From assembly GCF_003334405.1 (NCBI RefSeq), contig NZ_QOWM01000003.1: 64,000 nucleotides of DNA. The stretch is one strand, 5' to 3'. The notes beneath the pieces are model-generated. The model was not told where the DNA came from. It did no database searches and saw only the letters and a list, made by a program, of their open reading frames with translations. Made by a program: the position numbers and the translations under genes. Of the stretch, positions 15,267 to 57,257 are shown piece after piece. Source of the stretch: Escherichia coli (GTDB taxonomy: Bacteria > Pseudomonadota > Gammaproteobacteria > Enterobacterales > Enterobacteriaceae). The first letter of the stretch is position 1; every line of letters begins with the position of its first letter.

Positions 15267-15962
15267 ATGCTGAAGCGTTTCTTTATTACCGGTACAGACA
15301 CTTCTGTAGGGAAAACGGTGGTTTCCCGCGCATTGCTACAAGCGTTAGCCTCCCAGGGAAAAACGGTTGCGGGATATAAACCCGTAGCGAAGGGGAGCAA
15401 AGAGACACCCGAAGGGCTGCGTAATAAAGATGCCCTGGTGTTGCAGAGTGTTTCAACCATCGAACTGCCTTATGAAGCAGTTAATCCTATCGCGTTAAGC
15501 GAAGAAGAAAGTAGCGTGGCGCACAGTTGCCCAATCAATTACACCCTCATTTCAAACGGCCTGGCAAACCTGACCGAAAAAGTCGATCATGTCGTGGTAG
15601 AAGGGACTGGCGGCTGGCGCAGTCTGATGAATGATTTGCGTCCACTCTCTGAATGGGTAGTGCAGGAACAACTGCCGGTGTTGATGGTTGTCGGTATTCA
15701 GGAAGGTTGCATTAACCATGCACTGCTAACAGCTCAGGCGATCGCCAACGACGGGCTGCCGCTCATTGGCTGGGTGGCTAACCGAATCAACCCAGGACTG
15801 GCGCATTATGCGGAAATCATTGATGTGCTGGGTAAAAAACTTCCGGCACCGCTCATTGGTGAACTGCCTTATCTGCCGCGCGCCGAACAGCGTGAACTGG
15901 GGCAATACATCCGCTTAGCTATGCTGCGCAGTGTGCTGGCGGTAGATAGAGTCACGGTGTAA
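15267..15962 (+). CDS. ynfK: Dethiobiotin synthetase paralog (BioD2)
   Basis: Start at ATG 15267 ([18 protein letters not shown]-loop); 231 aa. Confidence 0.85.
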
Positions 15963-17171
15963 CGTCCGCGAAATTACCGACGCAATTACGCAGGCAATCA
16001 ATAAACCGGGGAGTAGCTGATACTCCCCGGTCATTTCACATATCATCAACGTCGACATAATCGGCGCGTGCGTGGTCGCCGCCAACAGTGTCGCCATCCC
16101 GGTCAATCCGAGTAAAAGTGTAATTTCTTCGCCATCAGGGAACCATAATCCCAGGCTACGACCATACAACATGCCAATGGCAAGACCGATAAATAGCGTC
16201 GGTGTAAAGACCCCACCGGGTGCGCCGGAACCGCTACTCGCCAGCACGGCACACAGTTTACAAAGGAAGATCCCGGCAATGATCATTAACAGTGGTGGGG
16301 CGGTTAAAAAGGATTGTACGGTGCTATAGCCGTTGCCCCACACTGCAGGTGTGAACAGGGAAAGCAGACCCACGATCAACCCGCCTAGTGCCAGTTGCCA
16401 GGGCGGCGCAAGTTTGAGACTCACAAATCCACGATGACAGGCGTTCATTAACGTTAACAACAGTGGTCCGCACAGACCTGCCAGCACACCTGTACTGATA
16501 ATCAGCGCATAGTCACGAGCCTGAACCGTCACTGAGAGTTGTACGTTGTAGAGTAACGCGTCGCTATGATTAATCAGATTGCTAACCAGCAATGCCACGA
16601 CGGCGGAAATAATCACCGGGCCGAGAGAGGCCAACATCATAGTGCCAAACAGCACTTCGGCTATAAATAAACTGCCAGCAAGCGGGGCACGATAGGCCGC
16701 AGCCATTCCCGCCGCGGCCCCACAGGCGATCCATAATTTCCACCCCTGGCGTGGCGTAAAACGTTGGGCAAAACAGGAGGCGGCAAGGGCAGCTAAAAGA
16801 ATCATCGCACCTTCGCGACCAATTGCACTGCCGCTGGTTACTACCAGCAGAGAGGCAAGCGATTTAACCAGGCTTGCTGCGTAATCGAACTGTCCATCGG
16901 TTTGCAACGCTTCCATATAATCGGTCGGCGCATGAGGGCGTTGTTGGGTAAATTTCTGCCAGCCCATCAGCAACAAACCCGCCGCCAGTCCGCCGAGCGC
17001 CGGAGTTAGCAACCGTCGCCAGGGGGAAAGGTTTGTCGCTGCATTGACCAGACTGCCGGAGTCATTATTGAGGAACAACCACTCCAGTAGCAGCATCGCA
17101 TGACGAAACCCGGCAACGGCAAAGGCCGCGAGAATACCGACGACTGTTGCGATAAGCAGACGGCGGAACAT
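15915..17171 (-). CDS. clcB: CLC-family voltage-gated chloride channel
   Basis: Start set at internal ATG 17171 ([14 protein letters not shown]...), 418 aa; GREG and GxFxP CLC motifs; 3' end overlaps the ynfK 3' end by 48 bp (convergent). Confidence 0.88.
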
Positions 17172-17365
17172 AGTGCGCAGATCCGGATAGATGTGTAGAT
17201 GATGCATGAGCAGAAATGGGCAATGAAACACGGGCGACTATTTTGCGGCAAAAGAGGCCAGCCGCAAAAGCAGTGCGTGCTTTAAGAGATAAAAAAACGT
17301 GACACTGTAACCTATTATTGCCGGATTGCGCGTAATCGTCACCATCCGGCAATATTACGGTGATC

Positions 17366-17980
17366 CTATCGAAACAGCGGTTTAACCGCGACAGGAATTA
17401 ACAGTTGTGATTGCCATTGCGCCAGCGTTAAGCGAGCCAGTTCACCCAGTGCACGGTAGAAAGGGTGTTCTGCTTTTTCGATAAAAACATCAAGAAAACG
17501 TGTTGACCACGGAAAAAGGTGCCATGCCAGCAATTCTTCGCATTCTGTCTGGCGACCATTCTCCGCCAACCACGCAGCCATCAACAGCAGTGAACCAAAA
17601 TGATCTTCCGGTTCGTTTTGCTTCATTTCAAACTGAATGCCTTTCTCGCGCATCCACTGACGAAGTGCCAATGTTGAATCGCCAAACAGCACAGATTCGC
17701 GATCCAGCCAGACCGACCCCCACGGCGGAGACGGCAGTGCCCACGGGCCGACAAACAAACGCTGCCAGGCCTGGGCGTGAGTCTCTTCACACTGTGTCTG
17801 AAAAGCCGTCACCAGCGGCGCTAATGACGCTTCTGGTAGAGGCCACTGAGTTTCCCAGCCGTCACTGGTGAGTACCGCAACCAGAGGTGCGGCTTCCGCA
17901 CTCTCTGGAGCGTAATAAAACAGCGCGCCCAACACGCGCGCCGCGACAGAAAAATTATCTTGCTGTGAAAAATGGGTCAT
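17366..17980 (-). CDS. dmsD: Tat proofreading chaperone for DmsA/YnfE/YnfF
   Basis: 204-aa ORF from ATG 17980 (MTHFSQQDNFSVAARVLGALFYY...), TorD family. Confidence 0.88.
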   Translation of the reverse strand: MTHFSQQDNFSVAARVLGALFYYAPESAEAAPLVAVLTSDGWETQWPLPEASLAPLVTAFQTQCEETHAQAWQRLFVGPWALPSPPWGSVWLDRESVLFGDSTLALRQWMREKGIQFEMKQNEPEDHFGSLLLMAAWLAENGRQTECEELLAWHLFPWSTRFLDVFIEKAEHPFYRALGELARLTLAQWQSQLLIPVAVKPLFR

Positions 17981-18022
17981 TCCTAACATCCTGAAATGTG
18001 CGGGTTGCCCCGCACCAATTTG

Positions 18023-18877
18023 TTAACCTGCAATAGCCATTCCTACTGTCATGTGCAGGCCATAAAAGAGCACACGCCCGATCATCTCACCGCCAAGTAT
18101 GAGGATTAGCCCCAGAATAAGTCCGGCAACGTGAGGTTCACGGCGACGAATGAGCGGGCAAAGCCAGCATCCAAGACCTGCGCATAACAATACCACACGC
18201 CAGACCTGTAAGGAGGCGTAATCTGGTACCAGTGCGCTGGCTTGTTGCACGGATGAGTGAATAGACGCCAGAGACAAACCTTGCAGCACAATCACCCCGG
18301 CACAAGCGATCAGCGCCAGAACGCTAATGATGGCAAATGGTGTGGTATTAAATGTAACGCGAGCTGCCCGCAGAATTGCGGCAGCAAGTATTGGACCGCT
18401 CAACAATACCGTCAGGAAGAAAGCCAGCGTAGTGTAACCGTTATGCCAGGTTGGCACGGTGTCGATTTGATACACGCAGGTCATCATCCAGACGAAAATG
18501 ACGCCGAGCGCCATGCTGAAAAGTAACCAGAGTTTCCCCAACGCTTGCGGCATTTTACCGATGACTGCCACCAGCCACCATAATCCGCCAACGGCAAAAA
18601 ATATGGAACCGGCAGCAATCTCGTTACTCAGACCAGAAGCTCCGATTCGATTCAGCGAGTTAAACGCCCGCAGTGGCGATCCCAGGTGCATGACAGAGGC
18701 AATAAACCCGACGCCCATCAACAGCCAGAGGAAAAACATGCCACGGACAATACGCTGACGGTCTGCGTCATTTTTGGCGGCGAACCAGCCAATTCCGCTA
18801 ACAATCAGCGCGCCTACTACGCATTGACCCAATACGGTAAAGATAACCAGTGGCCACTCATGCCATCCATTTCCCAT
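18023..18877 (-). CDS. ynfH: DmsC-like membrane anchor subunit
   Basis: Start set at ATG 18877 (MGNGWHEWPLVIF...), 284 aa, 8 TM helices; the track ORF extends upstream through the ynfG stop and is not used. Confidence 0.88.
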   Translation of the reverse strand: MGNGWHEWPLVIFTVLGQCVVGALIVSGIGWFAAKNDADRQRIVRGMFFLWLLMGVGFIASVMHLGSPLRAFNSLNRIGASGLSNEIAAGSIFFAVGGLWWLVAVIGKMPQALGKLWLLFSMALGVIFVWMMTCVYQIDTVPTWHNGYTTLAFFLTVLLSGPILAAAILRAARVTFNTTPFAIISVLALIACAGVIVLQGLSLASIHSSVQQASALVPDYASLQVWRVVLLCAGLGCWLCPLIRRREPHVAGLILGLILILGGEMIGRVLFYGLHMTVGMAIAG

Positions 18878-18878
18878 T

Positions 18879-19496
18879 TTACACTTCCTCCGGATTAGCC
18901 AGATAACCAGTGGTATCGCCGGTCGGGCGGCTGTTGGCGTTAGGTTTGATAACGATATTGGGTTTTGTGAAATGCGCGCGCGGCAGTGGCGCGACGGCAG
19001 CAAGAGTGCCGTGCTTCTGGCGCAGCTCTTCAATTGGACCGAACTCAAGTGCACGCAGCGGGCAGGATTCGACACATATGGGTTGTTTCCCCTCGGCGAC
19101 GCGCGAATAACAACCATCGCACTTCGTCATGTGCCCTTTTTCAGCATTGTACTGTGGCGCGCCGTACGGACAAGCCATGTGGCAGTAGCGGCAGCCGATA
19201 CAAACATCTTCATCAACCACCACAAAGCCATCTTCACGCTTATGCATTGCGCCGCTGGGGCAGACTTTTGTACATGCGGGGTCATCGCAATGGTTACAGG
19301 AGATGGAGAGATAATAAGCGAACACGTTCTGGTGCCAGACGCCATTATCTTCCTGCCAGTCGCCGCCAGCGTATTCATAAATACGGCGGAAACTGACTTC
19401 CGGGCCAAGATCTTTAAAATCTTTGCACGCCAGTTCGCAGGTTTTACAGCCAGTACAGCGGCTGGAATCGATAAAAAATCCATATTGTGTGGTCAT
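18879..19496 (-). CDS. ynfG: DmsB-like 4Fe-4S ferredoxin subunit
   Basis: 205-aa ORF with four CxxCxxCxxxCP cluster motifs. Confidence 0.9.
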   Translation of the reverse strand: MTTQYGFFIDSSRCTGCKTCELACKDFKDLGPEVSFRRIYEYAGGDWQEDNGVWHQNVFAYYLSISCNHCDDPACTKVCPSGAMHKREDGFVVVDEDVCIGCRYCHMACPYGAPQYNAEKGHMTKCDGCYSRVAEGKQPICVESCPLRALEFGPIEELRQKHGTLAAVAPLPRAHFTKPNIVIKPNANSRPTGDTTGYLANPEEV

Positions 19497-19506
19497 GGGC
19501 TACTCC

Positions 19507-21933
19507 TTAAACCTTTTCGATCTGGACAAGATTGCTGTGCGACGGGTTTCCCTTTGCCAGCGGTGAAGGGCGGTGAGAGGTCAGAATATTGATACTGCCG
19601 CCGTGATCGACCCGGTCACCAAACATATCCGCTTTAAGCCACGCACCTTGCCCGATGGCGGTAACGCCAGGCAGAATACGCGGAGTCACTTTTGCGGCAA
19701 TCAGCATTTCTCCATTATTGTTAAATACCCGCACGGTATCGCCATGACGGATACCGCGTGCCTGAGCATCAATGGGGTTGATCCACACCTCTTGTGGGCA
19801 GGCCTGCTGTAACACATCAATATTGCCGTAGCTGGAGTGGGTACGCGCTTTGTAATGGAAGCCCGTTAACTGCAGTGGATAGGTTTTCCGCAGGGGATCG
19901 TCCCAGCCATCAAAACCTGGGGTATACGCAGGAAGGGGATGAATAATTTCATCTTTTTTCAATTCCCAGGTATCTGCAATCTTCGCCAGTCGTTCAGAAT
20001 AAATTTCGATTTTCCCCGAAGGTGTTTTCAACGGGTTTGCCTGTGGATCTTCACGGAATGCGCGGAAAGCGACGTAGTGTTCTTCCGGGCATTTTTTCTT
20101 AAAGATCCCGGTCGTTTTCATCTCCTCGTAGTCGGGCATCTCAGGGTTACGTTCCTTCGTTTTCGCATGGAGATATTTGATCCATTCATGCTGACTGCGA
20201 CCTTCAGTAAAGGTTTGATAAACGTCTGGTCCTAAGCGTTTGGCGACTTCACTCAGCATCCAGTAGATGGGTTTGCGTTCAAATTTTGCTGAGGTTGCGG
20301 GTTGGGCGAGGATCACATAGCCCATATTCCCTGCAGATTCATGAGAGATAAGGTCTTCTTGCTCTGTTGGCATCAGGTCGGGCAACAGGATATCGCAATA
20401 CTTAGCCGAGGCCGTCATGAAGTGGTCAATGCCAACAATCATCTCGCACTTGCTGTCATCCTGAAGCACCTCATGGGTGTGATTGATGTCGCCATGTTGA
20501 TTGATCAATGTGTTACTGGCGTAGCACCATAAAAACTTGATGGGGACATCCAGTTTTTCTTTTCCACGAACACCATCACGGGTCGCGGTCATTTCCGTAC
20601 CATGGTCGATGGCATCTGTCCATGTAAAGACGGAAATCTGCGTTTTAACAGGATTCTCGAGCATCGGGAACCATTCTACCCCCAGATCCCAGCTACCTTC
20701 GCGTACGCCTGAGTTGCCGCCGTTTATGCCGACGTTGCCGGTGAGAACGGAAAGCATGGCAATAGCGCGGGATGTTTGCTCGCCGTTGGAATGTCGTTGT
20801 GGCCCCCAACCCTGACAAATATAAGCAGGTTTTGCTGAACCGATCTCTCGTGCCAACTGGATAATTTTTTCTGCCGGGATGCTGGTGATTTTTGCTGCCC
20901 ATTCCGGCGTTTTAGCTATGCCGTCAGGCCCTTCGCCCAGAATATAGGCTTTATAATGCGCGTTACGTGGTGCGTTGGCGGGCAGCGTTTTTTCATCGTA
21001 ACCAACACAATATTTGTCGAGAAATGGCTGATCGACCATGTTTTCAGTAATCAGTACCCAGGCAATCGCACAGGCCAGTGCGCCATCGGTGCCAGGGCGA
21101 ATGGGCAGCCATTCATCTTCACGCCCGGCAGCAGTGTCGTTATAACGTGGATCGATGACGATCATGCGTGCGTTTGAACGTTCGCGGGCTTGCTCGACGT
21201 AGTAAGTGACACCACCGCCGCTCATCCGCGTTTCTGCCGGGTTATTTCCGAACATAACGACCAGTTTCGTATTGGCGATATCATCCGGGCTGTTGCCATC
21301 ATTGGCACCGAACATATAACTCATTGCGGCACTGATCTGTGCGGTACTGTAGCTGCCATAGCGACTGAGAAAACCACCGCAAGAGTTCATCAGACGGTAC
21401 GGGACGTTTGAGTTGGTGATGTTTCCGCCATCTACGCCTGTTCCGTACAGGACATGTACAGCCTCATTGCCGTAATCTTTCAGGATCCGCCGAAGATTAT
21501 CACTGATGGTATCCAGGGCTTCGTCCCAACTTATCCGTTCAAATTTACCTTCACCGCGCTTGCCGACGCGCTTCATGGGATATTTCAACCTATCAGGATG
21601 ATTCATCCGTCGGCGGATAGAGCGCCCGCGTAAACACGCTCGAACCTGATGATTACCGTAGACGTCGTCACCTGTCGTATCAGACTCCACCCAGTACACG
21701 GTGTCATCTTTCACATGCAAACGTAACAGACAGCGGCTCCCGCAGTTAACGGTGCAGGAACTCCAGACCGCTTTCTCTTCTACCGGAGCCTCTGCCGCCC
21801 GGACCATTTGGGAAAATGGCAGAGTGAAAGCACTGCTTGCCAGCGCAAGACTGCCAAGTGCGGAGGTTTTCATCAGACTTCTACGGCTGATTTCAGCCTT
21901 CATGAGCGCCTCTGTGGTATGGATTTTCATCAT
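19507..21933 (-). CDS. ynfF: DMSO-reductase-family molybdoenzyme catalytic subunit, Tat-exported
   Basis: About 807 aa; twin-arginine signal SRRSLMKTSALGSLALA; tandem paralog of ynfE. Confidence 0.9.
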   Translation of the reverse strand: MMKIHTTEALMKAEISRRSLMKTSALGSLALASSAFTLPFSQMVRAAEAPVEEKAVWSSCTVNCGSRCLLRLHVKDDTVYWVESDTTGDDVYGNHQVRACLRGRSIRRRMNHPDRLKYPMKRVGKRGEGKFERISWDEALDTISDNLRRILKDYGNEAVHVLYGTGVDGGNITNSNVPYRLMNSCGGFLSRYGSYSTAQISAAMSYMFGANDGNSPDDIANTKLVVMFGNNPAETRMSGGGVTYYVEQARERSNARMIVIDPRYNDTAAGREDEWLPIRPGTDGALACAIAWVLITENMVDQPFLDKYCVGYDEKTLPANAPRNAHYKAYILGEGPDGIAKTPEWAAKITSIPAEKIIQLAREIGSAKPAYICQGWGPQRHSNGEQTSRAIAMLSVLTGNVGINGGNSGVREGSWDLGVEWFPMLENPVKTQISVFTWTDAIDHGTEMTATRDGVRGKEKLDVPIKFLWCYASNTLINQHGDINHTHEVLQDDSKCEMIVGIDHFMTASAKYCDILLPDLMPTEQEDLISHESAGNMGYVILAQPATSAKFERKPIYWMLSEVAKRLGPDVYQTFTEGRSQHEWIKYLHAKTKERNPEMPDYEEMKTTGIFKKKCPEEHYVAFRAFREDPQANPLKTPSGKIEIYSERLAKIADTWELKKDEIIHPLPAYTPGFDGWDDPLRKTYPLQLTGFHYKARTHSSYGNIDVLQQACPQEVWINPIDAQARGIRHGDTVRVFNNNGEMLIAAKVTPRILPGVTAIGQGAWLKADMFGDRVDHGGSINILTSHRPSPLAKGNPSHSNLVQIEKV

Positions 21934-21990
21934 TACTCACTTATTGCTTTTCAAACAAAATGTCATGCCAGAATTTATGGTTGTCGTGGG

Positions 21991-24417
21991 TTATATTTTT
22001 TCGATCTCGACCAGATTAGTGTGCTGCGGGTTTCCCTTCGCCAGTGGTGAAGGGCGCAGAGTGGTTAGCGTATTCACACAGCCGCCATGGTCGATTTTAT
22101 CGCCAGACATATTGGCCTCGTGCCAGGCTCCCTGGCCCATAGCGCTAACTCCAGGGAGAATACGTGGTGTTACTTTGGCTGGTAGCCGAACTTCGCCACG
22201 ATGGTTAAACACCCGCACCATATCGCCGTTGGCAATCCCACGTTTCTGCGCATCTATAGGGTTGATCCACACCTCCTGACGGCAGGCAGCCTTCAGGAGA
22301 TCAATATTGCCGTAGGTCGAGTGAGTACGGGATTTGTAATGGAAACCAAACAGTTGCAGTGGGAAGGTTCTACGTTCAGGGGAGTTCCAGCCTTCAAAGG
22401 TTGAGGCATAAACTGGCAATGGGCTTATCACTTCATCTTTTTCCAGTTCCCAGGTACGGGCAATTTCCGCCAGCCTGCTGGAATAAATTTCAATCTTACC
22501 GGAAGGCGTTTTAAGTGGATTTGCCTCGGGGTCGTCACGAAATGCTTTGTAGGCGACAAAATGGCCATTGGGATCTTTACGCTTATAGATACCCATTTTT
22601 TTCAGTTCGTCGTAAGACGGTAACGCCGGATCTTTGGCAAGCATTTTGGCGTACAGATGTTGTAACCATTGTTCCTGCGTGCGACCTTCTGTGAACTTTT
22701 GATAGACGTCAGGTCCAAGACGTTTCGCGACTTCACTCAGGATCCAGTAAATCGGTTTGCGTTCGAATTTTTCGCTGGTGACAGGCTGGAGGAAAATGAG
22801 ATATCCCATGTTACCGGCGTAGTCGTTAGGAATAATATCTTCCTGCTCAACGGTCATCAGGTCTGGCAGCAGAATGTCGGCATATTTTGCCGATGAGGTC
22901 ATAAAGTTTTCGATGACCACAATCATTTCGCATTTCGATTCGTCCTGCAGAATTTCATGCGTTTTGTTGATGTCAGAATGCTGATTAACGAGGGTATTTC
23001 CCGCGTAGTTCCAGATGAACTTAATGGGCACATCCAGTTTATCTTTGCCGCGGACGCCGTCGCGGATTGCCGTCATTTGCGGACCATGATCGATAGCATC
23101 TGTCCAGCTGAAGCAGGAGATTGACGTTTTGACCGGATTATCCAGCACCGGCAGGCGTTCTATGGTAATGGTATAGGTCGATTCACGCGCGCCACTATTT
23201 CCGCCGCTGATGCCGACATTGCCCGTCAAAATAGGTAACATAGCAATAGCGCGTGCAGTCAGTTCGCCGTTTGCCTGGCGTTGTGGCCCCCAGCCCTGGC
23301 AGATATAAGCGGGTTTTGCTGTGCCAATTTCACGCGCCAGTTTGATGATACGGTCCTCCGGGATACCGGTAATTTGCGAAGCCCACTGCGGCGTTTTCGC
23401 TGTTTTATCGTCACCTTCACCAAGAATATAGGCTTTATAGTGACCATTTTTGGGTGCATCTGCGGGTAAGGTTTTTTCGTCATAGCCGACGCAGTATTTA
23501 TCGAGAAAAGGTTGATCAACGAGATTTTCGTTAATCAATACCCAGGCAATACCCGCAACCAGCGCGGCATCGGTGCCCGGGCGAATAGGGAGCCATTCGT
23601 CTTCACGACCGGCAGCCGTATCGGTATATCGCGGATCGATAACAATCATTTTGGCGTTCGATTTCTCGCGCGCTTTTTCAAGAAGATAAGTGATGCCACC
23701 ACCGCTCATGCGGGTTTCTGCCGGGTTGTTACCAAACATCACGACCAGCTTGCTGTTTTCAATATCCGTGGTGCTGTTGCCATCATTACTGCCGTAGGTG
23801 TAGGGCATGGCACAGGAAATTTGCGCAGTGCTGTAGGAGCCATACTGGTTGAGTGAACCGCCGTAGCAGTTCATCAGGCGTTTGACCGCCGAGGCTGATG
23901 GCGAAGAGCGGGTCATATTGCCGCCAACGATCCCCGAAGAGTACTGAATATATACAGCCTCATTGCCATATTGTTCGACGGTTTTCTTCAGGCTACTGGC
24001 GATAGTATCCAGGGCTTCATCCCAGCTAATCCGTTCGAATTTGCCTTCGCCGCGTTTGCCCACGCGTTTCATTGGGTAATTCAAGCGATCGGGATGATTA
24101 ATACGCCGGCGGATGGAGCGACCGCGCAAACAGGCGCGTACCTGATGGTTGCCGTACTCATCGCTGCCGGTATTGTCAGTTTCCACCCAGGTCACTTCAT
24201 TATCTTTAACATGTAGACGAAGTGCACAGCGGCTACCACAGTTGACGGAACAGGCACCCCAGACCACTTTTTCGCGGGCCTGTTGTACCGCTGCTGCTGC
24301 ATTGCGCAGGGTAAACGGCAAAGAAAAACCGCCTGCAGCCAGCGCCAGAGAACCTATCGCGGTAGATTTAACGAGTGTTCTGCGGCTGATGCCCACCATT
24401 CGTTCATTTTTGGACAT
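21991..24417 (-). CDS. ynfE: DMSO-reductase-family molybdoenzyme catalytic subunit (selenate reductase-type), Tat-exported
   Basis: 808 aa; twin-arginine signal SRRTLVKSTAIGSLALAAG; tandem paralog of ynfF. Confidence 0.9.
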   Translation of the reverse strand: MSKNERMVGISRRTLVKSTAIGSLALAAGGFSLPFTLRNAAAAVQQAREKVVWGACSVNCGSRCALRLHVKDNEVTWVETDNTGSDEYGNHQVRACLRGRSIRRRINHPDRLNYPMKRVGKRGEGKFERISWDEALDTIASSLKKTVEQYGNEAVYIQYSSGIVGGNMTRSSPSASAVKRLMNCYGGSLNQYGSYSTAQISCAMPYTYGSNDGNSTTDIENSKLVVMFGNNPAETRMSGGGITYLLEKAREKSNAKMIVIDPRYTDTAAGREDEWLPIRPGTDAALVAGIAWVLINENLVDQPFLDKYCVGYDEKTLPADAPKNGHYKAYILGEGDDKTAKTPQWASQITGIPEDRIIKLAREIGTAKPAYICQGWGPQRQANGELTARAIAMLPILTGNVGISGGNSGARESTYTITIERLPVLDNPVKTSISCFSWTDAIDHGPQMTAIRDGVRGKDKLDVPIKFIWNYAGNTLVNQHSDINKTHEILQDESKCEMIVVIENFMTSSAKYADILLPDLMTVEQEDIIPNDYAGNMGYLIFLQPVTSEKFERKPIYWILSEVAKRLGPDVYQKFTEGRTQEQWLQHLYAKMLAKDPALPSYDELKKMGIYKRKDPNGHFVAYKAFRDDPEANPLKTPSGKIEIYSSRLAEIARTWELEKDEVISPLPVYASTFEGWNSPERRTFPLQLFGFHYKSRTHSTYGNIDLLKAACRQEVWINPIDAQKRGIANGDMVRVFNHRGEVRLPAKVTPRILPGVSAMGQGAWHEANMSGDKIDHGGCVNTLTTLRPSPLAKGNPQHTNLVEIEKI

Positions 24418-24615
24418 AACTCACTCCCTGTTCTTTATCGTTATATAAAAGTTTATATATTGAATATTTAGCGCGCTAACAATAGAGGGAGTCTACCCAT
24501 TTTGGGTTAAGAATTATTAATCCATATCAATAGAAGGGTATGAGTAATAAGGTGGGATTATGTTGTATGTTCAAATCGCCGGATTTGTCATATCCGGCGT
24601 TCAGTCGATAATGTG

Positions 24616-24921
24616 TTACTGCGGTTCGGCAGGCGCGCCATCCTGGCTAGACTGCGCGGGAGCAGAGACGTTACCGCTGGTGGTGCGGGTATAGAGAATT
24701 TTATGCGTATCATTAGCGCAATGGCCGACGACCTGGGAATCAGGCTGATCAACCTGGTCATTGGGTACAATACTTAACGTGAAGCTGCTTTCGGGTACGC
24801 CATTATTGATAATGCGCTGTGATATATCGCTCTGTATGCGCTCACAGGATCCCGGCGCGGCGAGTACCGCGGGTGAGGCGAGGGCGAGCAGAAGCGCGGC
24901 ACAGCAGGTTGAGAGTTTCAT
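24616..24921 (-). CDS. ynfD: DUF1161 periplasmic protein
   Basis: Start at ATG 24921 (MKLSTCCAALLLALASPAVLA signal peptide), 101 aa. Confidence 0.8.
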   Translation of the reverse strand: MKLSTCCAALLLALASPAVLAAPGSCERIQSDISQRIINNGVPESSFTLSIVPNDQVDQPDSQVVGHCANDTHKILYTRTTSGNVSAPAQSSQDGAPAEPQ

Positions 24922-25028
24922 CATAAGCTCCTTACGCGAAGATAACTTCTTTAAGCATAGCATTTAACGTGTAAAGTACTGTATTTGCTACTATGATTGA
25001 GAATCATCTCTACTCTCTGGTGACTGTT

Positions 25029-25739
25029 GTGAAATACAAATTACTACCATGCTTACTCGCGATATTCCTCACAGGATGTGACCGCACAGAGGTAACACTT
25101 TCATTTACCCCTGAGATGGCCAGTTTCTCTAATGAATTCGATTTTGATCCGCTGCGTGGTCCGGTAAAAGATTTCACTCAGACATTAATGGATGAGCAAG
25201 GTGAAGTGACGAAACGTGTTTCTGGGACTTTGTCGGAAGAAGGCTGTTTTGATTCACTCGAATTACTGGATCTGGAAAATAATACCGTGGTCGCTCTGGT
25301 ACTGGACGCCAATTATTACCGTGATGCCGAGACGCTGGAGAAGAGAGTACGTTTACAGGGAAAATGCCAGCTAGCAGAATTACCTTCTGCCGGGGTGAGT
25401 TGGGAAACCGATGATAATGGCTTCGTGATTAAAGCCAGCAGCAAACAAATGCAGATGGAATATCGCTATGATGATCAGGGTTATCCGCTGGGTAAAACCA
25501 CGAAAAGTAACGACAAAACATTATCTGTCAGCGCCACGCCATCAACGGATCCGATCAAAAAATTAGATTACACAGCGGTTACTTTACTGAATAATCAACG
25601 GGTTGGTAATGTAAAACAGAGCTGTGAATATGACAGTCACGCTAATCCGGTGGACTGTCAGCTAATCATTGTTGATGAAGGAGTAAAACCCGCCGTCGAA
25701 CGGGTTTACACCATCAAAAATACGATCGATTATTATTAA
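25029..25739 (+). CDS. ynfC: UPF0257-family lipoprotein
   Basis: Start at GTG 25029 (VKYKLLPCLLAIFLTGC lipobox), 236 aa; upstream ATG in the track is probably not used. Confidence 0.8.
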   Translation: MKYKLLPCLLAIFLTGCDRTEVTLSFTPEMASFSNEFDFDPLRGPVKDFTQTLMDEQGEVTKRVSGTLSEEGCFDSLELLDLENNTVVALVLDANYYRDAETLEKRVRLQGKCQLAELPSAGVSWETDDNGFVIKASSKQMQMEYRYDDQGYPLGKTTKSNDKTLSVSATPSTDPIKKLDYTAVTLLNNQRVGNVKQSCEYDSHANPVDCQLIIVDEGVKPAVERVYTIKNTIDYY

Positions 25740-29777: not shown

Positions 29778-31073
29778 TTAATTTTTCATTGCTTCGTTAT
29801 GGGGCATGGTTGGGGCAAACTCGCTTAACTGTGTATTTAACAAAGCTACCTGTGCATTATTGTTTTCAGACATCCATTTTCCGTATACCTGAAATACCAT
29901 TTGCGCATCTGCATGGCCCATCTGGTTTGCTATAAATGCCGGGTTAGCACCAGCTGTCAGCGACCAGCAGGCATAAGTATGTCTCGACTGATATGATTTT
30001 CGATGGCGGAGTCCGGCACGTTTTATCGCTGCGTCCCACATCTGCCTTATTGAGTCAACGGTAAAATGGTCACCATAATTTTTTACTCTCGCTGACACTT
30101 CAGGTTGAAAAACAAAGGTGCATTTTTGTTTTTCTGTTCTGCCATACTCTCTGAGGTGAACATCAATGATATGCTCTTTGCTCAGTCTCGTTAATGTCAT
30201 CTGACTCCGGAGAGCGTCGATTGCTGGCTTAATAAGATGAATGACCCGATTGGTTCCCGCCTGTGTTTTTGGTACCGTGAAACGGTCTTTTGCTAAATTT
30301 CTCCTGATCATCATTGTTCCATTTTTCAGATCTATGTCCTCCCATCCAAGTGCACACAGCTCACCAGGGCGAACTCCAGTATAAACAGAAACACACCATA
30401 AATTTTTTGCTTGCTGATTTCTGCACGCATCGATAAGACGGATAAATTCTTCCCGCGAAAGAGGATCCGGAATGGTTCTTGATTCCTTTAATGGCGAGAT
30501 CCCCTTAAACGGATTATCTGCCAGGTAACCGTTATCAACACCAAACTGGAACACGGCGTTAAGATTTGTCATGTAATTATTTACAGTTACAGCCGATCTC
30601 CCTGGTTGTGTAACAATATAGTTACTTTTGGGGATCTGGTATCCAGTCAGTAACTCTTTACGAACCTCCAGTAATTTTTCTTTATTAATCGATGAGGCAA
30701 GATTTTTTTCACCGATTATGCTCAGGATATTTTTGATGACGGCACGGTATGTGTTGAGTGATGTTTTGGCGACTTCAGTTTCTTTCAGTGCCAGAAATTT
30801 TTCAGCCAGTTCTTTTATGGTTAAATCTTGTCGGGCCTCACCAAATTTTTCCAGATTGCGTGAGGAGGGAAACTGTTTTGCATAGTCGAAAACACCAGTT
30901 TTTATTGCGTAACAAACAGAGGAGCGTAGTTCACCTGCAACGCGCCTGTTTTTTGCTGTGTCAGGAACCCCCAGATTTTCCCTGACTCTTACGTCTTTAT
31001 AAACAAACCAGATACGTAATTTCCCTCCATGGTTTTCCACGCCTGTCGGATATTTCATTTCAACTTCTCTCAT
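29778..31073 (-). CDS. Lambdoid tyrosine integrase (apparently full length)
   Basis: 431-aa ORF with catalytic-domain motifs YTGVRPGELCALGWEDIDL, HTYACW and GHADAQMVFQVYGKW; real start may be the ATG at 31058 (MKYPTGV...) which has a GAGAAG upstream. Confidence 0.85.
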   Translation of the reverse strand: MREVEMKYPTGVENHGGKLRIWFVYKDVRVRENLGVPDTAKNRRVAGELRSSVCYAIKTGVFDYAKQFPSSRNLEKFGEARQDLTIKELAEKFLALKETEVAKTSLNTYRAVIKNILSIIGEKNLASSINKEKLLEVRKELLTGYQIPKSNYIVTQPGRSAVTVNNYMTNLNAVFQFGVDNGYLADNPFKGISPLKESRTIPDPLSREEFIRLIDACRNQQAKNLWCVSVYTGVRPGELCALGWEDIDLKNGTMMIRRNLAKDRFTVPKTQAGTNRVIHLIKPAIDALRSQMTLTRLSKEHIIDVHLREYGRTEKQKCTFVFQPEVSARVKNYGDHFTVDSIRQMWDAAIKRAGLRHRKSYQSRHTYACWSLTAGANPAFIANQMGHADAQMVFQVYGKWMSENNNAQVALLNTQLSEFAPTMPHNEAMKN

Positions 31074-48609: not shown

Positions 48610-48884
48610 CATTTGTTTCAGGTGGTTCCAGTGGTGCTCCGGGAAGTGGATCACCTGATTATTCTAAATACAGTGTTAACACTTCTTCTGCAGGCGCTCA
48701 TACGCACTCTGTATCGGGTACTGCTGCAAGCGCAGGTGCACACGCACATACTGTCGGTATTGGTGCTCATACGCACTCCGTTGCGATTGGTTCACATGGA
48801 CATACCATCACCGTTAACGCTGCTGGTAACGCGGAAAACACCGTCAAAAACATCGCATTTAACTATATTGTGAGGCTTGCATAA
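48576..48884 (+). pseudogene. C-terminal fragment of side tail fibre protein Stf
   Basis: Gly/Ser/Thr-rich sequence with repeated GAHTHS motifs ([36 protein letters not shown]) typical of lambdoid Stf C-termini; no N-terminal part. Confidence 0.6.
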
Positions 48885-49459
48885 TGGCATTCAGAATGAG
48901 TGAACAACCACGGACCATAAAAATTTATAATCTGCTGGCCGGAACTAATGAATTTATTGGTGAAGGTGATGCATATATTCCGCCTCATACAGGTCTGCCA
49001 GCAAACAGTACCGATATTGCACCGCCAGATATTCCGGCAGGCTTCGTGGCTGTTTTCAACAGTGATGAGGCATCGTGGCATCTCGTTGAAGATCATCGGG
49101 GTAAAACGGTTTATGACGTAGCGTCAGGGGACGCGTTATTTATTTCTGAACTCGGTCCGTTACCGGAAAATGTTACCTGGTTATCGCCGGAAGGGGAGTT
49201 TCAGAAGTGGAACGGCACAGCCTGGGTGAAGGATACGGAAGCAGAAAAACTGTTCCGGATCCGGGAGGCGGAAGAAACAAAAAACAGCCTGATGCAGATA
49301 GCCAGTGAGCATATAGCGCCGCTTCAGGATGCTGTGGATCTGGAGATCGCAACGGAGGAAGAAACCTTGTTGCTGGAAGCCTGGAAAAAGTATCGGGTGT
49401 TGCTGAACCGTGTTGATACATCAACTGCACCGGATATTGAATGGCCAGCACTGCCGTAG
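48884..49459 (+). CDS. tfa: Tail fibre assembly protein
   Basis: 191-aa ORF; start overlaps the stf fragment stop. Confidence 0.8.
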
Positions 49460-49556: not shown

Positions 49557-50147
49557 TTATATGTCAGGTGTCTGACGTTTTGCTTTGGCTCTTAAAATGG
49601 TTTGCCGCGAGGTTTTGAATTCCCGGGCAATGGCACTTATACTTACACCTGACTTAATTCGTTCGAATACCACCTGTTTCTGTTCTTCATTTAACACAGG
49701 TGGTCGACCAAAACGTTTCCCTGCGCCGCGGGCTCTTACTATCCCGGAATGAGTGCGTTCAAGTAAAAGGTCTCGTTCAAATTCAGCGACTGCTGAAATT
49801 ACGTGCATCATCATTTTTCCTGTTGGACTGGTCAGGTCAATGCCCCCCAATGCTAAGCAATGCACTCTGATACCTGTTTCGGTCAGTTGTTCCACTGTTT
49901 TCCTGATATCCATTGCATTACAACCAAGGCGATCCAGTTTTGTCACAATCAATTGATCACCACATTTCAGGCGAGCAAGCAACCGGTTAAAACCAGGACG
50001 CTCACTGGTTGCTGCTGAGCCGCTAATGTGTTCTTCGATTATTTGCTGAGGTTTGATTTTAAAACCTGCACTTTCGATTTCCCGGCGTTGATTTTCGGTG
50101 GTCTGATCCAGCGTTGATATCCGACAGTAAGCAAAAATTCGAGACAT
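49557..50147 (-). CDS. pin: Serine recombinase, Hin/Gin/Pin DNA-invertase family
   Basis: 196-aa [23 protein letters not shown]... with catalytic Ser in RISTLDQ and C-terminal HTH. Confidence 0.88.
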
Positions 50148-52232: not shown

Positions 52233-53366
52233 TTAGAACTGATAAACCAGACCTAAAGCGACAATATCATCGGTAGAGATGCCATTGGCAGCGTAGAAGC
52301 TGTCATCTTCATCCAACAGGTTGATTTTATAGTCAACGTAGGTGGACATGTTTTTATTGAAATAGTAAGTCGCGCCAATATCGGCGTATTTAACCAGATC
52401 TTTATCATCAACACCTGCCGGGTTGTCTGCACCACCCGCAGCGTGCAGGTCACGGCCTTTAGACATCAGGAAAGAGACTGCCGGACGCAGACCAAAATCA
52501 AACTGGTACTGTGCAGTGACTTCAAAATTCTGGGTTTTGTTTGCCACAGCATAATCGCTGTCGCCAAACGGGGTCATATTACGCGTTTCTGAATACATGG
52601 TTGCCAGGTAAATATTGTTAGCATCGTATTTTAGCCCAGCAGTCCACGCGTCTGCTTTATCACCACCCGCCGCAGTATGGTTAACCTGGTCATTGGTGCG
52701 GTCAGAAGAGGTGTATGCCGCACCAGCGCTAAAGCCCATGCCTAAATCATATGTTGTGGAAAGACCCCAGCCGTCACCGTTTTCATGGCGAACATCACGT
52801 CCGTTGTTGGTGCCTTCCTGACCATTACTGGCTCCTTCGTTGTTACCTTGATACTGCACCGCGAAGTTCAGACCATTTACCAGACCGAAGAAATCAGTAT
52901 TACGATAAGTCGCGACGCCATTGGCTCGACCAGTCATAAAGTTGTCTGCATTGGTATAAGAGTCACCGCCAAATTCAGGCAGCATATCGGTCCAGCCTTC
53001 GATGTCGTACATTACGCCATAATTACGTCCGTAATCGAAAGAACCGTAATCTGCAAATTTCAGCCCGGCAAATGCCAGACGGGTCCATGACTGGTTTTTT
53101 GAAGATTCAGTGTTGTTTGCCTGAATATTGTATTCCCATTGACCGTAGCCAGTGAGTTGATCGTTAATTTGGGTTTCGCCTTTAAAACCCAGACGCGCAT
53201 AGCTCTGGTCGCCATCTTTCGCTGAATTATCAGAAAAATAATGCAGGCCATCAACTTTGCCATACAGATCTAATTTGTTGCCGTCTTTATTATAAACTTC
53301 GGCTGCATGTGCAGCACCTGCGGCGAGCAGGGCAGGAATTAAAAGTGCCAGTACTTTGCTTTTCAT
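52233..53366 (-). CDS. ompN: General porin (OmpC/OmpF/PhoE family), OmpN-like
   Basis: 377-aa ORF with signal peptide, N-terminal [25 protein letters not shown] and C-terminal Phe; position between uspF and ydbK. Confidence 0.85.
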
Positions 53367-53732
53367 TGAATAAATCCTTTAGTTATTTTATTTGCCTTTT
53401 ATCCCCATTTCGGGGAGTGAAAACATCCTAAAGGAGAAGTTCAGTTAGCCGATAAATATCATTTGTTACGCCTTAAGTAAAACCTTAATCAAATAATTTC
53501 TCTGAAATGATAATAAGTCTGGTGAATGTATCGAAGATAATGCATACAAAATAAAAATTATACTTTTAATTTGCTATACGTTATTCTGCGCGGGTTATAT
53601 GCCTTTATTGTCACAGATTTTATTTTCTGTTGGGCCATTGCATTGCCACTGATTTTCCAACATATAAAAAGACAAGCCCGAACAGTCGTCCGGGCTTTTT
53701 TTTTAGAATTGGATAATCCTTATCCAGAGCAT

Positions 53733-56700
53733 TTAATCGGTGTTGCTTTTTTCCGCTTTTCCGGCCATTTGTGCCAGGAAGTCATAGCGTTTTTGCAAAT
53801 CAGCTGCAGCATCTTTCCATAACTGTTCTGCCACTTCTGGCTGCTGCGAATTCAGCCGACGGAAACGTTGCTCGTGAAGTAACGTTTCTTCCAGTGCTTC
53901 TGACGGCGGGCGTGAATCCAAGGCCAGCGGCAGTTTGCCTTCATCGGCACGACGCGGATCAAAGCGATATAGCGGCCAGAAGCCGGTAGCTGTGAGTTGG
54001 CGCATCTGGTCGTGGCTGAGTGCCAGATCGTAACCATGCTCTTCACACGGGCTATAAGCAATGATCAGCGATGGCCCCGGATACGCTTCCGCTTCCTGAA
54101 TCGCTTTCACCGTCTGGTTCAGCTGCGCGCCGAGAGAAATCTGCGCCACATAAACATGACCGTACATCATCATACTGACGCCAAGATCTTTACGCGCTTT
54201 ACGTTTGCCGTGCTCGCCAAATTTAGTTACTGCACCCAGCGGTGTCGCTTTCGACGCCTGACCACCGGTGTTGGAATAGCATTGCGTATCCAGCACCAGA
54301 ATGTTGACGTTTTCCGTCAAACTCAATACATGATCCAGACCGCCAAAGCCGATATCGTAAGCCCAGCCATCACCACCAATCAGCCAGATTGATTTTTCCA
54401 CCAGTGCATCTGCATCACGTAGCAGTTCATGTGCTTCGGCAACATCGTTGAGTTGCTGGCGTAAAGCTGCAACCTGTTCACGACGAACCTCTGGCGTGGC
54501 GTCTGATTTCAACGCCGTCAGTAATTCCGCCGGGATTTTATCGGCAAATTGATCCAGCAGACGCAGCACGCGGACACGGTGTTGATCGACCGTCAGGCGG
54601 AAACCAAGGCCAAATTCGGCATTATCTTCAAATAGAGAGTTCGCCCATGCCGGCCCACGACCGTTGGCATCGGTGGTATACGGTGTAGAGGGCAGGTTAC
54701 CGCCATAAATTGAAGAACAGCCAGTGGCGTTAGCGATCAACATCCGGTCGCCATAGAGCTGAGTCAGTAATTTAATATACGGCGTCTCGCCACAACCGGA
54801 GCAAGCACCTGAATATTCAAACAGCGGTGTAATCAGCTGCGATGTACGAATATCAATACGTTCCAGTTTGCTACGGTCGATTTCTGGCAGGTTGAGGAAG
54901 AAATCGTAATTGATTTTCTCTTCTTCGACATGTTCCAGGCGAGACATCATATTGATGGCTTTAATCTCTGGATTCTGACGGTCTTTCGCCGGGCAAACTT
55001 CGACGCACAGGTTACAACCGGTGCAATCTTCCGGTGCCACCTGCAAGACATATTTCTGCCCGCGCATATCACGCGATTTCACATCCAGCGAATGCAGGCT
55101 GGCAGGGGCGTTTTCCATCGCTTCAGGCGGCACCACTTTTGCGCGAATAGCTGAGTGTGGGCAAGCGGCAACGCAGTGGTTACATTGGGTACAGAGTTCC
55201 TCTTTCAAGATGGGGATCTCTTCGGCGATATTGCGTTTTTCCCAGCGCGTAGTGCCCATCGGCCAGGTGCCGTCTGGCGGCAGCGCCGAAACGGGGAGGG
55301 CGTCACCAAGCCCGGCGAGCATCGCAGCGGTTACGGTTTTCACGAAATCAGGGGCGGCATCGGAAACCACTGGCGGTCGATTGGCGCTGTGCGGATTTAC
55401 CGGTTGCAACGGAACTTCTTCTACGGATTCACGCGCCAGCGCCAGAGCCTGCCAGTTGCGTTCCACCAGATCCTGGCCTTTGCTACTGTAACTTTTGGCA
55501 ATCGCACCCTGCAATTCTGCGAGGGCGCTATCGCCAGGCAGAATTTGCGTCAGATGGAAAAAAGCCATCTGCATGACGGTATTAATACGGGCCGCCAGGC
55601 CACATTCGCGGGCGATTTTCGCCGCGTTAATCACATAGAAGCGCGCTTTTTTCTGGTTTAACACGGCCTGAACTTCTTGCGGCAAGCGCGACCACACTTC
55701 ATCTGTGCTGTACGGCGTGTTGAGCAGGAAAATGCCGCCAGGTTTTAAACGCTCAGCCATCTGATATTTATCGATAAACTGCAACTGGTGGCAGCCAACA
55801 AAATCAGCCTGGGAAATGAGATAAGCGGAACGAATCGGCTGTTCGCTCACTCGAAGGTGAGAAACCGTCAGGCCGCCCGCCTTTTTGGAGTCGTAAACAA
55901 AATAGCCCTGTGCGTACCACGGCGTGGAATTACCGATAATCTTGATATTGTTTTTGGTCGCGGAAACGCTGCCATCACTACCAAGGCCATAAAACAAGGC
56001 TTCCAGTTTCGCCGAGTTTGGCAGGGTGTTTTCCGGCAACGGCAGTGACAGATTGGTCACATCATCGTAAATACCAACCGTAAAGCGCGCTTTCGGTTTA
56101 GCCGCGTTGAGCTCGGCAAATACCGCCAGTACACAGTCTGGGCCAAATTCTTTGGATGAAAGACCATAGCGCCCACCAATGACACGGGGCAGAGTTTCGC
56201 GCTCGCCATTATTAAAGGCTTCTGCCAGTGCGGTCATTACATCCAGATAGAGCGGTTCTGCCTGGGCACCGGGTTCTTTGGTTCTGTCCAGTACCGCCAC
56301 GCTGCGTACGGATCCCGGCAGAGCTTGCAGTAAATGTTTAGCGGAGAAGGGGCGGTACAGGCGAACTTTCAGCACGCCAACTTTTTCGCCACGGGTTAGC
56401 AATTCATCAACCACTTCTTCACAGGTGCCAATGGCAGAGCCCATCAGGATAATCACCCGTTCCGCTTGCGGATGCCCGTAATATTCAAACGGCTGATACT
56501 GACGACCTGTCGCGGCAGAGAAATCATTCATCGCCTGTTCAACATGGTCATAGACCGCGTTGTACCATGGGTTGGTGGCTTCGCGAGACTGGAAATAAGT
56601 GTCAGGATTGGCGGACGTACCGCGGATCACCGGATGTTCCGGGTTGAGTGCCCGGGCGCGATGAGCATCAATTTCGACCTGCGGCATGAGATCAAGAATC

Positions 56701-57257
56701 GTGTCATCGGCCAGCGGGACAATTTTATTGATTTCGTGGGACGTGCGGAAACCATCAAAGAAATGAATAAATGGCACGCGGCTTTTCAGCGTCGCGATTT
56801 GCGAAATGAGAGCAAAGTCTTGCGCTTCCTGGACGTTTGCTGCACACAACATCGCGCAACCCGTCTGGCGCACCGCCATAACGTCGGAATGATCGCCAAA
56901 AATAGAGAGTGCATGTGTGGCAACGGTACGTGCCGCTACATGCAGGACAAACGGTGTTAGTTCGCCTGCCAGTTTGTACAGCGTCGGGATCATCAGCAGC
57001 AAACCCTGCGATGACGTAAACGATGTTGAAAGGGCACCCGTCTGCAAAGCGCCATGCACGGTAGCGATAGCACCCGCTTCCGACTGCATTTCAACCACGC
57101 GTGGTGTGTCTCCCCAAACGTTCTTTAAGCCGTTTCCGGCCCAGGCATCAGCCTGTTCTGCCATCGTGGAACTGGGGGTAATAGGGTAGATGGCGATAAC
57201 TTCACTGGTGCGAAATGCGACCGAAGCAACCGCGCCATTACCGTCAATAGTAATCAT
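53733..57257 (-). CDS. ydbK: Pyruvate:flavodoxin/ferredoxin oxidoreductase (NifJ-like)
   Basis: 1174-aa ORF with two ferredoxin-type CxxCxxCxxxCP motifs and a TPP-binding GGDGW region. Confidence 0.92.
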   Translation of the reverse strand: MITIDGNGAVASVAFRTSEVIAIYPITPSSTMAEQADAWAGNGLKNVWGDTPRVVEMQSEAGAIATVHGALQTGALSTSFTSSQGLLLMIPTLYKLAGELTPFVLHVAARTVATHALSIFGDHSDVMAVRQTGCAMLCAANVQEAQDFALISQIATLKSRVPFIHFFDGFRTSHEINKIVPLADDTILDLMPQVEIDAHRARALNPEHPVIRGTSANPDTYFQSREATNPWYNAVYDHVEQAMNDFSAATGRQYQPFEYYGHPQAERVIILMGSAIGTCEEVVDELLTRGEKVGVLKVRLYRPFSAKHLLQALPGSVRSVAVLDRTKEPGAQAEPLYLDVMTALAEAFNNGERETLPRVIGGRYGLSSKEFGPDCVLAVFAELNAAKPKARFTVGIYDDVTNLSLPLPENTLPNSAKLEALFYGLGSDGSVSATKNNIKIIGNSTPWYAQGYFVYDSKKAGGLTVSHLRVSEQPIRSAYLISQADFVGCHQLQFIDKYQMAERLKPGGIFLLNTPYSTDEVWSRLPQEVQAVLNQKKARFYVINAAKIARECGLAARINTVMQMAFFHLTQILPGDSALAELQGAIAKSYSSKGQDLVERNWQALALARESVEEVPLQPVNPHSANRPPVVSDAAPDFVKTVTAAMLAGLGDALPVSALPPDGTWPMGTTRWEKRNIAEEIPILKEELCTQCNHCVAACPHSAIRAKVVPPEAMENAPASLHSLDVKSRDMRGQKYVLQVAPEDCTGCNLCVEVCPAKDRQNPEIKAINMMSRLEHVEEEKINYDFFLNLPEIDRSKLERIDIRTSQLITPLFEYSGACSGCGETPYIKLLTQLYGDRMLIANATGCSSIYGGNLPSTPYTTDANGRGPAWANSLFEDNAEFGLGFRLTVDQHRVRVLRLLDQFADKIPAELLTALKSDATPEVRREQVAALRQQLNDVAEAHELLRDADALVEKSIWLIGGDGWAYDIGFGGLDHVLSLTENVNILVLDTQCYSNTGGQASKATPLGAVTKFGEHGKRKARKDLGVSMMMYGHVYVAQISLGAQLNQTVKAIQEAEAYPGPSLIIAYSPCEEHGYDLALSHDQMRQLTATGFWPLYRFDPRRADEGKLPLALDSRPPSEALEETLLHEQRFRRLNSQQPEVAEQLWKDAAADLQKRYDFLAQMAGKAEKSNTD

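Follow-up and report, generated by a model that had tools for sequence, protein, structure and literature searches.

Selenate reductase operons of the ynf type have been described in Escherichia coli and related enterobacteria, and here we examine the one carried by a 64,000-nucleotide stretch of an E. coli genome (assembly GCF_003334405.1, contig NZ_QOWM01000003.1), referred to below as the window, in which the genes ynfE, ynfF, ynfG, ynfH and dmsD lie on the minus strand at 17.3-24.6 kb. Descriptions of the operon, including the pair of paralogous catalytic genes, the chaperone and control by FNR, go back to 2003-2013, and all of these are already known. The reference system is ynfEFGH-dmsD of E. 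coli K-12 MG1655 (b1587-b1591), with which the window shares gene order, flanking genes, all five proteins and an identical 283-nucleotide (nt) upstream region; there is no amino acid difference in the operon, and the two contexts diverge about 6.5 kb beyond ynfE, in a Qin-type prophage.

In Salmonella enterica the ynfEFGH-dmsD selenate reductase operon likewise consists of these five genes, ynfE and ynfF both among them; for it the reductase function, the twin-arginine translocation (Tat) signal peptide of YnfE and its binding by DmsD have been reported (PMC5203670). The epitope residues of that signal peptide, L24 and A28, are both found in YnfE of the window; the Salmonella and E. coli DmsD proteins are 77% identical, and the likeness to this different genus is that given by the publication, no Salmonella DNA having been compared (PMC5203670). 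A second described system, srnABCD of Enterobacter cloacae SLD1a-1, is FNR-controlled and Tat-dependent and comprises a molybdoenzyme, an iron-sulfur (Fe-S) subunit, an anchor and a chaperone; it shares the Tat motif SRRTLVK and the FNR half-sites TTGAT and ATTAA with the window operon, and the identity between SrnA and E. coli YnfE is 86.2% (PMC12724226). It differs in having four genes, with a single catalytic gene and no tandem paralogue, and an E. coli mutant lacking ynfEF regains the ability to reduce selenate when given srnA (PMC12724226).

Dimethyl sulfoxide (DMSO) reductase of E. coli, DmsABC, has the same three-subunit architecture (families TIGR02166, TIGR02951 and Pfam DmsC), is likewise activated by FNR (PMC3688515) and shares the DmsD chaperone (PMC12096835), but the dms locus is a different one, with a single catalytic gene and without a gene for a chaperone. 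Compared with these systems the window operon is a two-catalytic-gene version of srnABCD, the same system as Salmonella ynfEFGH-dmsD, and a paralogue rather than a copy of dmsABC.

Organization of the operon

We regard it as very nearly certain that the minus-strand locus at 17.3-24.6 kb represents an intact ynfEFGH-dmsD operon of E. coli whose proteins are those of K-12. The first gene, ynfE (24417..21991, minus strand; 808 amino acids, aa), is predicted to encode a Tat-exported catalytic subunit of selenate/tellurate reductase containing molybdenum-bis(pyranopterin guanine dinucleotide) (Mo-bisPGD), and is followed by ynfF (21930..19507, minus), whose 807-aa product is the paralogous catalytic subunit. 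Next are ynfG (19496..18879, minus; 205 aa), for a predicted electron-transfer subunit with four [4Fe-4S] clusters, and ynfH (18877..18023, minus; 284 aa), for a DmsC-type membrane anchor predicted to be the quinol-oxidizing subunit, and the last gene is dmsD (17980..17366, minus; 204 aa), whose product is assigned by family as a chaperone binding the Tat signal peptide. The intergenic gaps from ynfE to dmsD are 60, 10, 1 and 42 nt, such that ynfG starts 10 nt past the ynfF stop and ynfH only 1 nt past the ynfG stop. All five genes are co-oriented on the minus strand with these short gaps, a hairpin and a run of seven U residues lie directly 3' of dmsD, and the genes are predicted to form one transcription unit from a promoter upstream of ynfE. 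The locus is flanked by ynfD, ynfC and speG on one side and by clcB, bioD and mlc on the other.

The mechanical list of open reading frames (ORFs) gives two of 808 aa (21991..24417 and 19507..21933), one of 205 aa (18879..19496) and one of 207 aa (17366..17989), together with a 364-aa ORF (18023..19117) that is ynfH over-extended into ynfG; the true start at 18877 yields 284 aa. An earlier sequence-only reading of this DNA had described tandem catalytic genes ahead of a ferredoxin subunit, an anchor and DmsD, an order borne out by both the ORFs and the family models. Its description of two 808-aa catalytic subunits holds for YnfE and needs correction for YnfF, as the curated start of ynfF in the K-12 and RefSeq annotations is the second ATG, giving 807 aa, and 808 aa are reached only from the first ATG at 21933. 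Similarly, the interval 18023-24417 that it assigned to ynfEFGH-dmsD does contain ynfEFGH but ends at the ynfH stop, leaving dmsD (17366-17980) outside.

Identity to known genomes is extensive. Between window positions 17200 and 24700 a single base differs from MG1655, the third position of the Ser74 codon of ynfH (18656); the change is synonymous, such that all five proteins are those of K-12 MG1655. The earlier claims that this is a known K-12 feature and that both catalytic copies are full length and undecayed thus stand: YnfE and YnfF are identical to b1587 and b1588 over 808 of 808 and 807 of 807 residues, which rules out decay of either copy in the window, and a search of both long ORFs for a frameshift or premature stop revealed neither. 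When 5,426 complete E. coli genomes were searched by megablast with window positions 17300-25000, the region was present in all but five (5,421), in many at 100% identity, and the RefSeq annotation of 100%-identical DNA uses the names ynfE, ynfF, ynfG, ynfH and dmsD. The window itself is not MG1655, as the prophage beyond rspB differs; within 17.3-24.6 kb the result is a clean negative, with no decay, rearrangement or hidden element. We note separately that about 100 genomes lack any ynfEF match.

Catalytic subunits and their partners

Each catalytic protein is recognized by its own curated family model. YnfE scores 1796.1 bits against NCBIfam NF041885 (selenate_YnfE; cut-off 1675), which YnfF fails at 1482.7 bits, and YnfF scores 1774.7 bits against NF041884 (selenate_YnfF; cut-off 1650), which YnfE fails at 1474.8 bits. 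Both pass the TIGR02166 dmsA_ynfE subfamily model (1401 and 1286 bits; cut-off 778). Along with the matches of YnfG and DmsD to their own models and of YnfH to Pfam DmsC, described below, these scores support the DMSO-reductase family assignment made from the sequence alone.

The shared architecture and domain content, and the passing of TIGR02166 by both proteins, raise the alternative that the locus is the DMSO reductase operon dmsABC itself, or a recent copy of it. This is vanishingly improbable: the two proteins reach only 1342.6 (YnfE) and 1321.0 (YnfF) bits with the DmsA model NF011566, below its cut-off of 1600, while each passes the YnfE or YnfF model appropriate to it, and the neighbors ynfD/ynfC/speG and clcB/bioD/mlc represent the ynf and not the dms context. 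Model scores and synteny together refute identity with dmsABC, and the locus is best read as ynfEFGH-dmsD.

The expected motifs are present in both proteins. In YnfE, Pfam identifies PF04879 (Molybdop_Fe4S4, residues 49-108), PF00384 (Molybdopterin, 111-566) and PF01568 (Molydop_binding, 687-800). The twin-arginine signals previously attributed to both catalytic subunits are seen as the motif SRRTLVK at residue 11 of YnfE, followed by the hydrophobic stretch STAIGSLALAAGGFSLPF, and as SRRSLMK at residue 15 of YnfF, followed by TSALGSLALASSAFTLPF. The cysteines of a proximal [4Fe-4S] cluster motif are arranged as C56-x3-C60-x3-C64-x31-C96 in YnfE, and the same motif comprises C59, C63, C67 and C99 of YnfF in the 807-aa numbering. 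Ser196 of YnfE, in the motif GSYSTAQ that is kept in YnfF too, aligns with residue 147 (in DYSTAAAQ) of Rhodobacter sphaeroides DMSO reductase (1eu1), a serine that we take to be the Mo ligand. YnfE and YnfF are therefore each predicted to carry a serine-held Mo-bisPGD and one N-terminal [4Fe-4S] cluster.

Of the solved structures in the Protein Data Bank (PDB), the one nearest in sequence is that of Rhodobacter DMSO reductase, a soluble enzyme (260 bits). The catalytic chain of the Thermus thermophilus polysulfide reductase PsrABC (PDB 2vpw) matches YnfE residues 11-807 at 163 bits; it differs from the window operon in being a distant relative with a different substrate. Among membrane-bound complexes with three subunits of this type, we take PsrABC (2vpw) to be the nearest with a solved structure, and its Mo ligand is a cysteine, not a serine. 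No observation made here speaks against the identification of the locus; two limits are that the PDB copy searched contains no solved structure for the DmsA/YnfE/YnfF group and that the MG1655 annotation still calls YnfE and YnfF 'putative' selenate reductases.

The partner proteins show similarly clear affiliations. YnfG passes TIGR02951 (DMSO_dmsB) with 264.8 bits against a cut-off of 214.1, and its 16 cysteines fall in four groups at residues 14-24, 67-79, 99-109 and 126-145. YnfH matches Pfam DmsC (PF04976) over model positions 1-275 of 275 (E = 4.7e-128) and has about eight hydrophobic segments in a hydropathy scan; no NCBIfam model matched it at 1e-10. DmsD scores 347.4 bits against NCBIfam NF008632 (TorD/DmsD/NarJ chaperones; cut-off 162), and its residues 1-204 match the solved DmsD structures 3u41, 3efp and 3cw0 at 462.6 bits.

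Age of the ynfE/ynfF duplication

The pairwise alignment of YnfE and YnfF that had been proposed from the sequence alone shows 71% identity between the proteins and 70% between the genes, and where the two proteins have an identical residue the same codon is used in only 52% of cases. The proportion of synonymous differences (pS) is 0.70, corresponding to a synonymous distance (dS) of about 2, with a nonsynonymous distance (dN) of 0.21, such that synonymous sites are saturated. No identical stretch exceeds 17 nt, and over 60-codon segments identity stays flat, between 61 and 77%, which rules out recent gene conversion between the two genes. Given this saturation and the lack of gene-conversion tracts, the duplication is old and the copies are not being homogenized. 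An old duplication is also in line with the occurrence of ynfE and ynfF together in Salmonella (PMC5203670) and of the single srnA in Enterobacter cloacae (PMC12724226). The heptamer AGTGAGT lies one base before the ynfE ATG and before the first ynfF ATG (24418-24428 and 21931-21941, minus strand); because it precedes both start codons, the duplicated unit probably included the ribosome-binding region. Of the two ynfF ATG codons, the second, its curated start, is the better spaced.

Both copies are under strong purifying selection, with dN/dS values of 0.065 for ynfE and 0.038 for ynfF between the window and the phylogroup B2 strain APEC O1. As far as substitution patterns can tell, these data favor maintained and distinct roles for YnfE and YnfF.

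Loss of ynfF in other E. coli genomes

In two other genomes ynfF has been disrupted. It is a 1,570-nt frameshifted pseudogene in JJ1887 (positions 2501-4070 of locus L003) and in EC958 (positions 5264-6833 of locus L005), with two internal deletions corresponding to window positions 19589-19862 (274 base pairs, bp) and 20637-21216 (580 bp), and ynfE, ynfG, ynfH and dmsD are intact in both. EC958 is labeled O25b:H4-ST131 (sequence type 131), and JJ1887 also belongs to ST131. A 120-nt probe spanning the junction of the 580-bp deletion was used to count end-to-end matches among the complete genomes, and the junction is present in 546 of the 5,426, or about a tenth. The ST131 loss shows that YnfF is dispensable in some settings. 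A deleted ynfF in so many complete genomes, EC958 and JJ1887 among them, is relevant to any work there on ynfF expression or function; expression of ynfF in EC958 was the subject of measurements published in 2025, in the consulted passages of which the deletion is not mentioned (PMC12096835).

These genomes, together with the report that Salmonella YnfF 'does not contribute greatly' to selenate reductase activity (PMC5203670), suggest the alternative that YnfF is a redundant spare heading for loss and that YnfE alone matters physiologically. We consider this improbable. The ynfF gene of the window is intact and K-12-identical, with its Tat motif, cluster cysteines and Mo-ligand serine all kept; its dN/dS across the phylogroup A/B2 split is below that of ynfE; and the paralogues have coexisted long enough to saturate synonymous sites. 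Moreover, 29 of the 40 differences between the ST131 remnant and the window fall at third codon positions, so the loss there is recent. We thus prefer the reading in which both YnfE and YnfF have been maintained.

Insertions inside ynfEF were also seen in a handful of genomes (H1-H3, H11, H19 and H30), caused by the insertion sequences (IS) IS5, IS3 or IS1 or by an IS26-flanked aph(3')-Ia. The annotated features of four of these (H1, H11, H19 and H30) show ynfE split in two fragments with ynfF intact.

Proposed function

The mechanism proposed here combines gene order, integrity, families, motifs, duplication age, purifying selection and the FNR motif, all from the present analysis, with substrates, Tat export, DmsD binding and regulation by FNR and NarL, which are taken from the literature. 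When oxygen is absent, FNR would switch on a single promoter upstream of ynfE, and in the presence of nitrate NarL would repress it. YnfE and YnfF would serve as alternative catalytic subunits, each held by DmsD through its twin-arginine signal peptide during cofactor insertion, and once folded would be exported by Tat, probably along with YnfG. The exported YnfE or YnfF would then dock on YnfH, a putatively heme-free DmsC-type anchor oxidizing menaquinol, and the electrons of menaquinol would be expected to reach YnfE or YnfF by way of YnfH and then YnfG. There the Mo site would reduce selenate to selenite, and may also act on tellurate and probably on some S- and N-oxides. A further source for selenate-to-selenite reduction is PMC10609526, and PMC12096835 gives tellurate and S- and N-oxides as other reported or proposed substrates.

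In a second alternative, the main job of the enzymes concerns other oxyanions or S-/N-oxides rather than selenate respiration, with YnfE and YnfF differing in their substrates. YnfE and YnfF are close DmsA paralogues, as their scores with the DmsA model (1343 and 1321 bits) attest, and strong purifying selection acting separately on two proteins with 29% of their residues different agrees with their having distinct roles. Lubitz and Weiner, in work of 2003, reportedly found that over-expressed YnfFGH supports growth on DMSO. PMC12096835 links ynfEF to tellurate reduction (citing Fujita et al. 2021), describes induction of ynfE by hypochlorite and proposes a role as back-up for DmsABC. However, E. 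coli no longer reduces selenate once ynfEF has been deleted (PMC12724226), and the curated NCBI models name both proteins as selenate/tellurate reductase subunits; we judge this alternative rather unlikely.

As a tentative suggestion, which we would not put higher than a minority possibility, YnfE and YnfF may be kept for different substrates while competing for a single YnfGH and a single DmsD, with YnfF being niche-dependent and recently discarded in ST131. If this is true, such specialization is nothing special to the window, where the operon has its usual, undamaged form.

The promoter upstream of ynfE

The sequence-only reading had singled out the region upstream of ynfE as a place to look for an FNR site, and a predicted one, TTGATatggATTAA, is found there (24530..24517, minus strand). 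It matches 9 of 10 positions of TTGAT-N4-ATCAA, its center at 24523.5 lies 106.5 nt 5' of the ynfE ATG, and it is the only match to this FNR-like pattern in the ynfD-ynfE spacer. Across the window there are six such matches against 3.9 expected; because this count is not enriched, the motif alone proves little, and it counts through its position and outside evidence. Chromatin immunoprecipitation sequencing of FNR in K-12 supports the site, identifying ynfEFGH-dmsD as directly activated from one FNR site at -40.5 (PMC3688515). The 9/10 match and this published position agree with a class II FNR-activated promoter, in which the site lies about 41 nt before the transcription start. In E. cloacae the site upstream of srnA, ttgatgaggattaa, has both half-sites the same, including the non-consensus ATTAA, but a different spacer (PMC12724226).

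Conservation of the region is consistent with this assignment. MG1655 has exactly the same 283 nt before ynfE, the FNR site is identical in E. coli C, and in the B2 strain JJ1887 there are 13 substitutions in the 283 nt and none in the FNR site or the 26 nt before it.

Because the FNR site has been placed at -40.5, we infer a transcription start near 24483, with TAGACT (24495..24490, minus strand) as the candidate -10 hexamer. A generic sigma-70 scan found no two-hexamer promoter on the coding strand upstream of ynfE, as is to be expected of a promoter that is activator-dependent and has no -35 element. Between the FNR site and the -10 hexamer sits a candidate NarL 7-2-7 site, TAACCCAaaATGGGTA (24509..24494, minus strand), with two mismatches to TACYYMT-NN-AKRRGTA. 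NarL-like matches across the window number four against 3.45 expected, which is at chance level, such that position is the sole argument for this one. Since NarL repression of the ynfE promoter, along with FNR activation, has been reported (Xu et al. 2009, as summarized in PMC6561318), TAACCCAaaATGGGTA is a plausible NarL operator.

The top sigma-70-like match in the region, TTGTCA-16-GATAAT (10 of 12 positions; 24585-24612, plus strand), which resembles a promoter by consensus alone, lies over the ynfD terminator hairpin and is directed antisense into ynfD, towards ynfC.

Probable terminators and other RNA structures

A long hairpin right after the dmsD stop (17370..17291, minus strand), followed by seven U residues at 17297..17291, folds at -28.3 kcal/mol (z = -4.2), with none of 200 shuffles being as stable, and is the probable operon terminator. 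At the other end of the operon, shortly before ynfE, ynfD terminates in a hairpin with AUUUG after it (24599..24577).

The 42-nt spacer between ynfH and dmsD (17981-18022) contains a second, G+C-rich hairpin, GUGCGGG-GCAA-CCCGCAC (17998..18015, minus strand), with 7 bp and no U-run after it; the spacer folds at -18.5 kcal/mol (z = -2.96). The 56 nt around this spacer are invariant among MG1655, JJ1887, APEC O1 and EC958, with flanking synonymous divergence of 4-10%. The hairpin could stabilize the transcript or attenuate transcription before dmsD. The ynfE-ynfF spacer folds no better than shuffled sequence (z = +1.34), and no Rfam family was matched in 17000-25000, either at the gathering threshold or at E values up to 1.

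Within the genes, too, a generic scan picks out several coding-strand sites that resemble terminators. By a simple scan there are 17 such sites in 17000-25100, compared with 9.0 +/- 3.4 expected, mostly inside coding sequence.

Genomic context of the operon

The window is colinear with MG1655 at 99.97% over 10486-30937 and divergent thereafter, beyond rspB. Where colinearity ends, the window carries (within 29600-51241) a Qin-type prophage that is fuller and less degraded and whose integrase ORF (29778-31073) is intact; neither the IS2 remnant nor the dicC-dicA-dicF-dicB segment of MG1655 is present. The closest relatives, NCTC9087, H3 and ML35 (99.9%), have an extra IS30 insertion that is absent from the window. 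The far end of the prophage includes tfa (48884-49459) and pin (49557-50147), and from about 51.2 kb it adjoins uspF, ompN (52233-53366), MicC (53591-53711) and nifJ/ydbK (53733-57257).

In MG1655, uspF, ompN, MicC and nifJ flank the Rac prophage, about 220 kb away. The junction of the Qin-type prophage with uspF looks like the product of an inversion or deletion by recombination between the homologous ends of the two prophages. Colinearity across this junction is seen in none of the complete genomes of the collection, whose coverage of 29001-54000 is at most 89%.

A match to the Rfam sok antitoxin RNA (104 bits; 35415-35586, plus strand) lies in a part of the prophage that is missing from the Qin prophage of MG1655, and the equivalent position in NCTC9087 has no annotated feature; this may be an unannotated hok/sok locus. 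On the other side of the operon, clcB (15915-17207, minus strand) is annotated as 1,293 nt in the RefSeq E. coli C genome and as 1,257 nt in MG1655, with different starts, and in both annotations its 3' end overlaps bioD/bidA, on the opposite strand, by 48 nt.

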